Assembly: GCF_013167455.1 (NCBI RefSeq) | Contig: NZ_CP038328.1 | Reading direction: 5' to 3' (one strand) | Length of the DNA stretch: 64,000 bases | DNA from: Escherichia coli O157:H7 | GTDB taxonomy: Bacteria; Pseudomonadota; Gammaproteobacteria; Enterobacterales; Enterobacteriaceae | Shown: positions 3,263 through 4,119 of the stretch, piece by piece | How positions within the stretch are numbered: position 1 is the stretch's first letter | Layout of the letters: the number at the start of each line of letters is the position of its first letter | The notes under the pieces: generated by a model | What the model saw: the letters and a program-made list of their open reading frames with translations, nothing else | What the model was told of the DNA's origin: nothing | Database searches by the model: none | Position numbers and translations under genes: made by a program

Positions 3263-4119
3263 ATATCGCAATTGTGACAATAAATCAGGAGAATGCCGCA
3301 TTAGCGGGCTGGCTGGCGGCGCAGGATTTCAGCGGTTGTACCCTGGCGCACTGGCAAATAGAACCACAGCCCGTAGTGGTGGAACAGGTGCTGGATGCGC
3401 TGGTGGAACAGTGGCAGCGAACGCCTGCGAACGTTGTTCTCTTTCCGCCGGGAACGTTTGGCGATGAACTGTCGACTCGGCTGGCCTGGCGTTTACATGG
3501 TGCAAGCATCTGCCAGGTGACTTCGTTAGAGATTCCAATCGTAAGCGTGCGCAAATCCCACTGGGGAAATGCGCTAACGGCGACGCTGCAAACAGAAAAA
3601 CGCCCGCTATGTCTTTCCCTGGCGCGCCAGGCGGGAGCAGATAAAAATGCCACGTTGCCCTCTGGTATGCAGCAACTGAACATAGTCCCAGGTGCGCTTC
3701 CGGACTGGCTGGTTAGCATAGAGAACCTGAAAAATGTTACCCGCGACCCATTAGCTGAGGCCAGACGGGTGTTGGTGGTGGGGCAGGGCGGAGAGGCAGA
3801 TAACCAGGAAATCGCTATGCTGGCATAAAAGCTGGGAGCCGAAGTGGGCTACAGTCGGGCGCGAGTGATGAACGGTGGCGTTGATGCTGAAAAAGTGATT
3901 GGTATTTCCGGACATCTGCTGGCACCTGAGGTGTGTATTGTTGTTGGCGCTTCTGGCGCAGCAGCGTTAATGGCGGGCGTACGCAATAGCAAGTTTGTGG
4001 TGGCGATTAATCATGACGCCAGCGCAGCGGTATTTTCACAGGCAGATGTTGGCGTGGTTGATGACTGGAAAGTGATGCTGGAGGCACTGGTGACAAACAT
4101 TGACGCAGAATGCCAATAA
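3259..4119 (+). pseudogene. ygcQ: electron-transfer flavoprotein alpha-subunit-like (FixB-like) interrupted by in-frame TAA at 3826-3828
   Basis: ORFs 3226..3828 and 3844..4119 are in the same frame, separated by a single TAA; ATG 3259 overlaps ygcR stop; 3259..4119 would encode 286 aa. Confidence 0.65.

Follow-up and report, generated by a model that had tools for sequence, protein, structure and literature searches.

A premature stop codon in the ETF alpha-like gene ygcQ shared by O55:H7 and O157:H7 Escherichia coli

The ETF alpha-like gene ygcQ of Escherichia coli O157:H7 is interrupted by an in-frame TAA codon, which is very probably an inherited nonsense mutation that inactivated the gene in the common ancestor of O55:H7 and O157:H7 and has been transmitted vertically since then. 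As in other lineage-fixed nonsense pseudogenes, orthologues have a sense codon at the site, the stop recurs in independent assemblies, its sampled carriers belong to one clade, and a functional part of the protein is removed, with loss of activity as the likely consequence. Here, we describe the mutation in a 64,000-nucleotide stretch of O157:H7 DNA (referred to throughout as the window), together with its distribution, its effect on the predicted protein, and the later lesions in the surrounding gene cluster. The pseudogene itself is already known, and it is a case of ordinary gene decay.

Results

Locus and premature stop codon

The window is ordinary O157:H7 chromosome. A 1,001-nt query at the TAA site, covering ygcQ and ygcR, was 100% identical to many O157:H7 chromosomes, and a second 4-kb block of the window also matched many O157:H7 genomes at 100%. 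(At its final ~40 nt, the 1,001-nt query hit additional places in many genomes.) The genes ygcU, ygcS, ygcR, and ygcQ follow one another on the plus strand, with ygcP, ygcO, ygcN, and queD on the minus strand (Table 1); beyond queD lie cysJIH and a type I-E cas operon, and the window continues onward to norV and norR. The ATG of ygcQ (the PGAP start) overlaps the stop codon of ygcR as ATGA, such that a gene for an ETF beta/FixA-like partner stands directly beside it. Nothing follows ygcQ in its transcription unit, and the next gene, ygcP, is convergent with it, such that the premature stop has no downstream gene on which to act. The ygcQ-ygcP intergenic region (4120-4240) contains REP-like palindromic units, GCCTGATAAGACG...CGTCGCATCAGGC and GCCGGATG....

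The letters at the site read ATC GCT ATG CTG GCA TAA AAG CTG GGA GCC GAA GTG GGC, and translation of 3259-4119 gave 286 codons with codon 190 as the sole internal stop (...EIAMLA*KLGAEVGYSRARV...). A preliminary description of this DNA had proposed that an in-frame TAA at 3826-3828 splits ygcQ, which is borne out by the sequence reading and translation. It had also placed the ORFs 3226-3828 and 3844-4119 in one frame, in agreement with the ORF list, and had suggested that a 286-aa ETF alpha-like protein would be encoded if the stop were absent, which PGAP, the intact K-12 orthologue, Pfam, and an alignment with human ETFA all support. The end of the first ORF at 3828 held up, but its start at 3226 did not, the true start by PGAP coordinates being the ATG at 3259. 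Relative to K-12, 13 of the 286 codons change the residue (stop included). Both halves match intact YgcQ in one frame, indicating a single-codon interruption of a real gene rather than a chance stop.

Table 1. Features of the ygc cluster, with positions in the window unless another sequence is named
Feature	Position	Strand	Basis or remark
ygcU, 3' part; GlcD-like FAD-linked oxidoreductase, presumed electron donor of the cluster	2-1075	+	PGAP; model matches
ygcS (MFS transporter) pseudogene, frameshifted	1097-2505	+	1-nt deletion in T run at ~2182-2186
ygcR, ETF beta/FixA-like partner, intact	2483-3262	+	PGAP; model matches
ygcQ pseudogene (ETF alpha/FixB-like; 286 codons, one internal stop)	3259-4119	+	PGAP "FAD-binding protein, pseudo, internal stop"; K-12 orthologue intact, 286 aa
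N-terminal ygcQ ORF, 189 codons; ETF domain I and first ~25 residues of FAD-binding domain	3259-3825	+	Pfam on K-12 orthologue
Premature TAA, ygcQ codon 190; G>T at 3826 versus ancestral GAA (Glu190)	3826-3828	+	Direct reading; orthologue comparison
Shine-Dalgarno-like GGGAG, 5 nt upstream of GTG 3844 (possible restart site, unproven)	3834-3838	+	Direct reading
C-terminal ygcQ ORF, 91 codons, start GTG 3844; most of FAD-binding domain	3844-4119	+	ORF list; ETF-alpha model matches
ygcP, GlpP-like antiterminator, convergent with ygcQ	4267-4842	-	ORF list; PGAP
ygcO, FixX-like ferredoxin	4859-5119	-	PGAP; FixX match, E 3e-23
ygcN, FixC-like FAD-dependent oxidoreductase	5110-6381	-	PGAP; FixC subfamily models, E 6e-109 and 3e-114, below curated cut-offs
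yqcE, second MFS transporter of the cluster	L008 33662-34939; L016 867-2144; L015 922-2199		Outside the window
ygcW with Q32*	L004 969-1754; L005 969-1754		

Distribution and origin of the mutation

The exact 61-mer centered on the TAA was present in 309 of 5,426 complete E. coli genomes. Another 4,730 genomes matched it with at least one difference, most of them with exactly one differing base and an intact ygcQ annotated, while ~330-390 of the 5,426 had no ygcQ segment at all. We sampled 60 of the 309 perfect-match carriers evenly. All 60 were annotated "ygcQ: FAD-binding protein," which is the PGAP product name of the pseudogene, and all were O157:H7, the sorbitol-fermenting O157 strain 493/89, or O55:H7 (CB9615 and DEC5A); LSU61 and classical O157:H7 from several continents were among them. 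Read base by base, O55:H7 CB9615 had T-A-A at the same bases, and it differed from the window at 5 positions in 9 kb, none of them in ygcQ. Two further variants were observed at the locus: in the pig isolate NJS001 (5.1 Mb), the O157 haplotype carries an additional ygcQ substitution at 3785, and in DEC5A, ygcU is longer than in the window by a 6-nt insertion at ~499.

Codon 190 is GAA in K-12, strain 2824, TW08637, B1_2, O169:H41, and strain 48, all read directly. The preliminary description had anticipated GAA or CAA in orthologues, and GAA is what K-12 and four other lineages show. The mutation thus consists of one G>T transversion, located at 3826, which converts Glu190 to a stop. An identical 265-nt haplotype, but with GAA, occurred in 22 genomes, which are more distant and phylogroup-E-like. 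Across the genome collection, exact searches for the O157-type haplotype with GAA found nothing at a length of 1,001 nt or at 359 nt, and GAA combined with the clade-specific allele at 3539 was found in no genome. These comparisons indicate that the mutation arose before the O55:H7/O157:H7 split, on the branch leading to their common ancestor. As only the 265-nt core matches with GAA, the event is placed no more finely than before the O55:H7/O157:H7 ancestor, O145:H28 lying outside the comparison. The ygcQ branch carries three nonsynonymous changes versus one synonymous change, a ratio of no statistical weight.

This distribution also bears on whether the TAA is real. The preliminary description had left two options, a genuine nonsense pseudogene or a base-call error, and an error (in base calling or assembly, with GAA as the true codon and ygcQ intact) would be of the commonest kind, as a single substitution separates TAA from GAA. 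However, the 309 complete genomes that share the identical 61-mer were produced in many laboratories and countries and on many platforms; O55:H7 CB9615 carries the TAA as well and was reported to have a ygcQ pseudogene in 2010; and the O157-type haplotype with GAA is missing from the collection over both lengths given above. With the same context in 309 independent assemblies, we rule out a sequencing error, whose probability we consider negligible, and the genuine pseudogene is the option that stood.

All O157 and O55:H7 records that we opened in RefSeq (PGAP) carry the flag "pseudo, internal stop" for ygcQ. Entries in the supplement to Zhou et al. 2010 (PMC2806823) list CB9615 G2583_3419 as "pseudogene ygcQ" and give ygcQ as split ORFs in Sakai (ECs3624/ECs3625) and EDL933 (Z4079/Z4080); they likewise give ygcS as split in O157 (ECs3627/3628 and Z4082/4083), with the deletion assigned to the O157 lineage. 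Our literature search yielded a functional study neither for ygcQ nor for the wider ygc cluster, and no experimental paper on YgcQ; searches with the locus tags Z4079, Z4080, ECs3624, and ECs3625 returned unrelated results only.

Effect on YgcQ and the predicted electron path

In K-12 YgcQ, Pfam places an ETF domain (PF01012) at residues 41-128 (E 2e-6) and the ETF_alpha FAD-binding domain (PF00766) at residues 165-242. The region of PF01012 is uninterrupted in the window. In contrast, PF00766 is cut at residue 190, corresponding to model position ~27 of 81, such that no single polypeptide carries a contiguous C-terminal FAD-binding domain. Searched separately, the 189-aa N-terminal fragment had no ETF-alpha match and no match to any NCBIfam model, and the 91-aa ORF matched solely the C-terminal ends of ETF-alpha NCBIfam models (E about 1e-12). 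In an alignment with human ETFA (1efv), VGYSRARV of YgcQ corresponds to VGASRAAV and GASGAAALMAG to GISGAIQHLAG. Both segments lie downstream of the stop, and we take their human counterparts to line the flavin site. Of the FAD-binding domain, about two thirds is thus lost to the truncation, along with the entire C-terminus. Judging by this domain architecture, a working ETF containing the truncated protein is very unlikely, and the window appears to hold a pseudogene of an ETF-alpha/FixB family member rather than a functional member.

A functional split gene would require translation to end at the TAA and restart at GTG 3844, with the 189-aa and 91-aa chains joining YgcR in a working ETF that lacks residues 190-195. 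A start codon and a ribosome-binding motif are indeed present near the stop, the GTG with its GGGAG (3834-3838) following 15 nt after it, but nothing at the site is specific to, or improved in, the lineage with the split gene: GGGAG-N5-GTG is ancestral coding sequence, and the 61-mer differs from that of intact genes solely by the G>T change. Being identical in intact genes, the motif was not selected for restarting. The 91-aa ORF does hold the conserved flavin-site segment; however, the break falls inside the FAD-binding domain, about a third of the way along its model. In the genomes compared, both halves are free of additional damage; in a clade this young (as the few differences between the window and CB9615 illustrate), however, undamaged halves carry no weight. 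For the same reason, a test of the split gene by dN/dS or further decay was discarded as uninformative, there being almost no diversity within the clade at this locus. The subsequent inactivation of ygcS and yqcE in independent sublineages (see below) also speaks against a split gene, as it fits a pathway no longer under selection. We therefore regard a functional split gene as very improbable, although somewhat less so than a sequencing error.

Full-length YgcQ could in principle also be made if the TAA were read through, either by a suppressor tRNA or by programmed recoding dependent on context, a possibility for which we found no support. To our knowledge, the sole programmed recoding of a stop codon in E. 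coli is that of UGA with a SECIS element for selenocysteine, while the codon here is UAA followed by A. Moreover, thousands of genomes retain the ancestral codon, an ordinary GAA, so the site has no history of recoding, and its flanks are unchanged from those of intact genes. We assign readthrough the same minimal probability as a sequencing error, which leaves an inactivating nonsense mutation as our reading of the TAA.

The neighboring genes suggest what may have been lost. YgcR resembles ETF beta/FixA, YgcN resembles FixC (E about 1e-109, below curated cut-offs), YgcO resembles FixX, and YgcU is a GlcD-like FAD-linked oxidoreductase. From these similarities, we infer that the ygc cluster encodes a FixABCX-type electron path serving some dehydrogenase reaction. 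Translation of ygcQ, coupled to that of ygcR through the ATGA overlap, would stop after residue 189. The product would keep ETF domain I and lose the FAD-binding part, such that YgcR and YgcQ could probably not assemble with FAD, and a path from the GlcD-like YgcU through the ETF YgcRQ and the FixC/FixX-like YgcN/YgcO to quinone would be broken. With the pathway dead, the other genes of the cluster may then have drifted under relaxed selection and gained lesions of their own.

Later lesions in the cluster

The 1-nt deletion in the T run of ygcS divides the gene into ORFs 1097-2302 and 2230-2505, which are in different frames. O55:H7 strains CB9615 and DEC5A have an intact ygcS, and CB9615 has one more T in the run. 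PGAP calls ygcS "frameshifted" in every O157 strain checked, and base-by-base reading revealed the same deletion in OK1, 493/89, and NJS001; for LSU61, the status given in Table 2 is the PGAP flag, as the alignment broke upstream of window position 2210. Since ygcS is intact in O55:H7 and frameshifted in O157, its lesion postdates the ygcQ stop.

Table 2. State of ygcQ and of the two transporter genes in members of the clade
Genome	ygcQ	ygcS	yqcE
O55:H7 CB9615, DEC5A	TAA	intact	W377*
LSU61	TAA	frameshifted	K135* (site differs from O55:H7)
493/89	TAA	frameshifted	intact
OK1, NJS001	TAA	frameshifted	intact
Window	TAA	frameshifted	outside the window

We also considered whether a stop in yqcE, seen in TR01 and CB9615, might be ancestral to the clade, and rejected this: OK1, 493/89, and NJS001 have an intact yqcE, and O55:H7 and LSU61 are affected at different codons. 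(For TR01, the evidence is an "internal stop" flag in the annotation alone.) The ygcQ stop thus came first and was followed by at least three separate lesions in the transporters of the cluster, in different sublineages. These later ygcS and yqcE lesions fit relaxed selection on a dead pathway, although their numbers are small. Strain J31 (wild boar; L006), with a frameshift in ygcQ and an internal stop in ygcN, and strain 48 (deer; L010), with a frameshift in ygcR, also show damage to the cluster.

Knockout of ygcW in a second EHEC group

An exact 61-mer containing ygcW Q32* (CAG>TAG) was found in 118 of the 5,426 genomes, including O26:H11, O103 RM8385, and O111:H11. Many STEC of 5.4-5.8 Mb are also among the carriers, as is one 4.7-Mb soil isolate. 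This mutation is a second, independent, clade-fixed knockout in the cluster, located in the other main EHEC group. The two main EHEC clades could accordingly have lost the ygc electron-transfer/sugar-acid-like catabolic cluster convergently, perhaps even adaptively, an idea that we consider unlikely. Taking, as an assumption, on the order of 100-150 pseudogenes in each lineage and a total of ~4,500 genes, the chance that a second lineage hits a given 10-gene cluster is, by rough estimate, about 20%, and the mutation extends to the soil isolate; convergence is therefore only a hint. Were it true, a substrate or niche abandoned by these lineages might be traced through it.

Other observations in the window

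TR01, the O157:H7 genome that was the top BLAST hit, is the same as the window across ygcQ and the first 4 kb. Between 4001 and 64000, the two differ at 726 positions and by 24 gaps, clustered in blocks that reach 70 differences per 2 kb; in one such block, the window has 100% matches among other O157:H7 genomes. Recombination or poor polishing appears to account for TR01, the typical sequence being that of the window, and with 726 block-clustered differences over 64 kb, TR01 was dropped as a reference.

A CRISPR array lies at 20722-21012, between cas2e and iap. Its five type I-E repeats (GTGTTCCCCGCGCCAGCGGGGATAAACCG) recur at a spacing of 61 nt and enclose four spacers; the final two repeats are degenerate. 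The array adjoins a complete cas3-casABCDE-cas1-cas2 operon. The norV gene (61522-62961, minus strand) is a full-length ORF of 479 codons. Some O157:H7 lineages have a 204-bp in-frame deletion in norV; by the length of its ORF, the window presumably derives from a lineage with the intact allele.

Discussion

The ygcQ TAA is a clean clade marker, found both in O55:H7 and in every O157 strain examined, whereas the ygcS frameshift is a marker of O157 alone. In combination, the two lesions order the decay events within the FixABCX-like cluster. For genome annotation, the TAA should be kept and not "corrected" in O157:H7 assemblies, and a single ygcQ pseudogene is preferable to the two short ORFs of the original Sakai and EDL933 annotations.

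The closest point of comparison is ygcQ of K-12, a putative ETF alpha of the FixB family with the paralogues fixB and ydiR. Locus, length, and neighbors are the same as in the window, with ygcW-U-S-R-Q convergent with ygcP-O-N, and the two ygcQ sequences are about 96% identical as DNA and agree in 273 of 286 residues. K-12 differs in having GAA at codon 190 in place of the TAA of the window, an intact YgcQ, and an intact ygcS. The ygcQ pseudogenes of CB9615, Sakai, and EDL933 have the same mutation at the same base as the window; outside ygcQ, however, CB9615 differs in its intact ygcS and in a yqcE nonsense mutation of its own.

More broadly, the case is like the lineage-fixed nonsense pseudogenes of pathogenic E. 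coli and Shigella, which are attributed to decay after a shift of niche. Here too, a one-base nonsense mutation became fixed in a clone, it struck a dispensable accessory catabolic cluster, and further lesions in the pathway followed. In comparison with those examples, the loss of ygcQ may be neutral as well as selected. Finally, the cluster contains a set of genes like that of the FixABCX and ETF/ETF-quinone-oxidoreductase systems, with YgcR in the place of ETF beta, YgcQ of ETF alpha, YgcN as the FixC-like protein, and YgcO as the FixX-like protein. Unlike FixABCX proper, the ygc proteins match below the curated equivalog cut-offs, which points to a paralogous system, and in the genome from which the window comes, the alpha subunit of that system is truncated.
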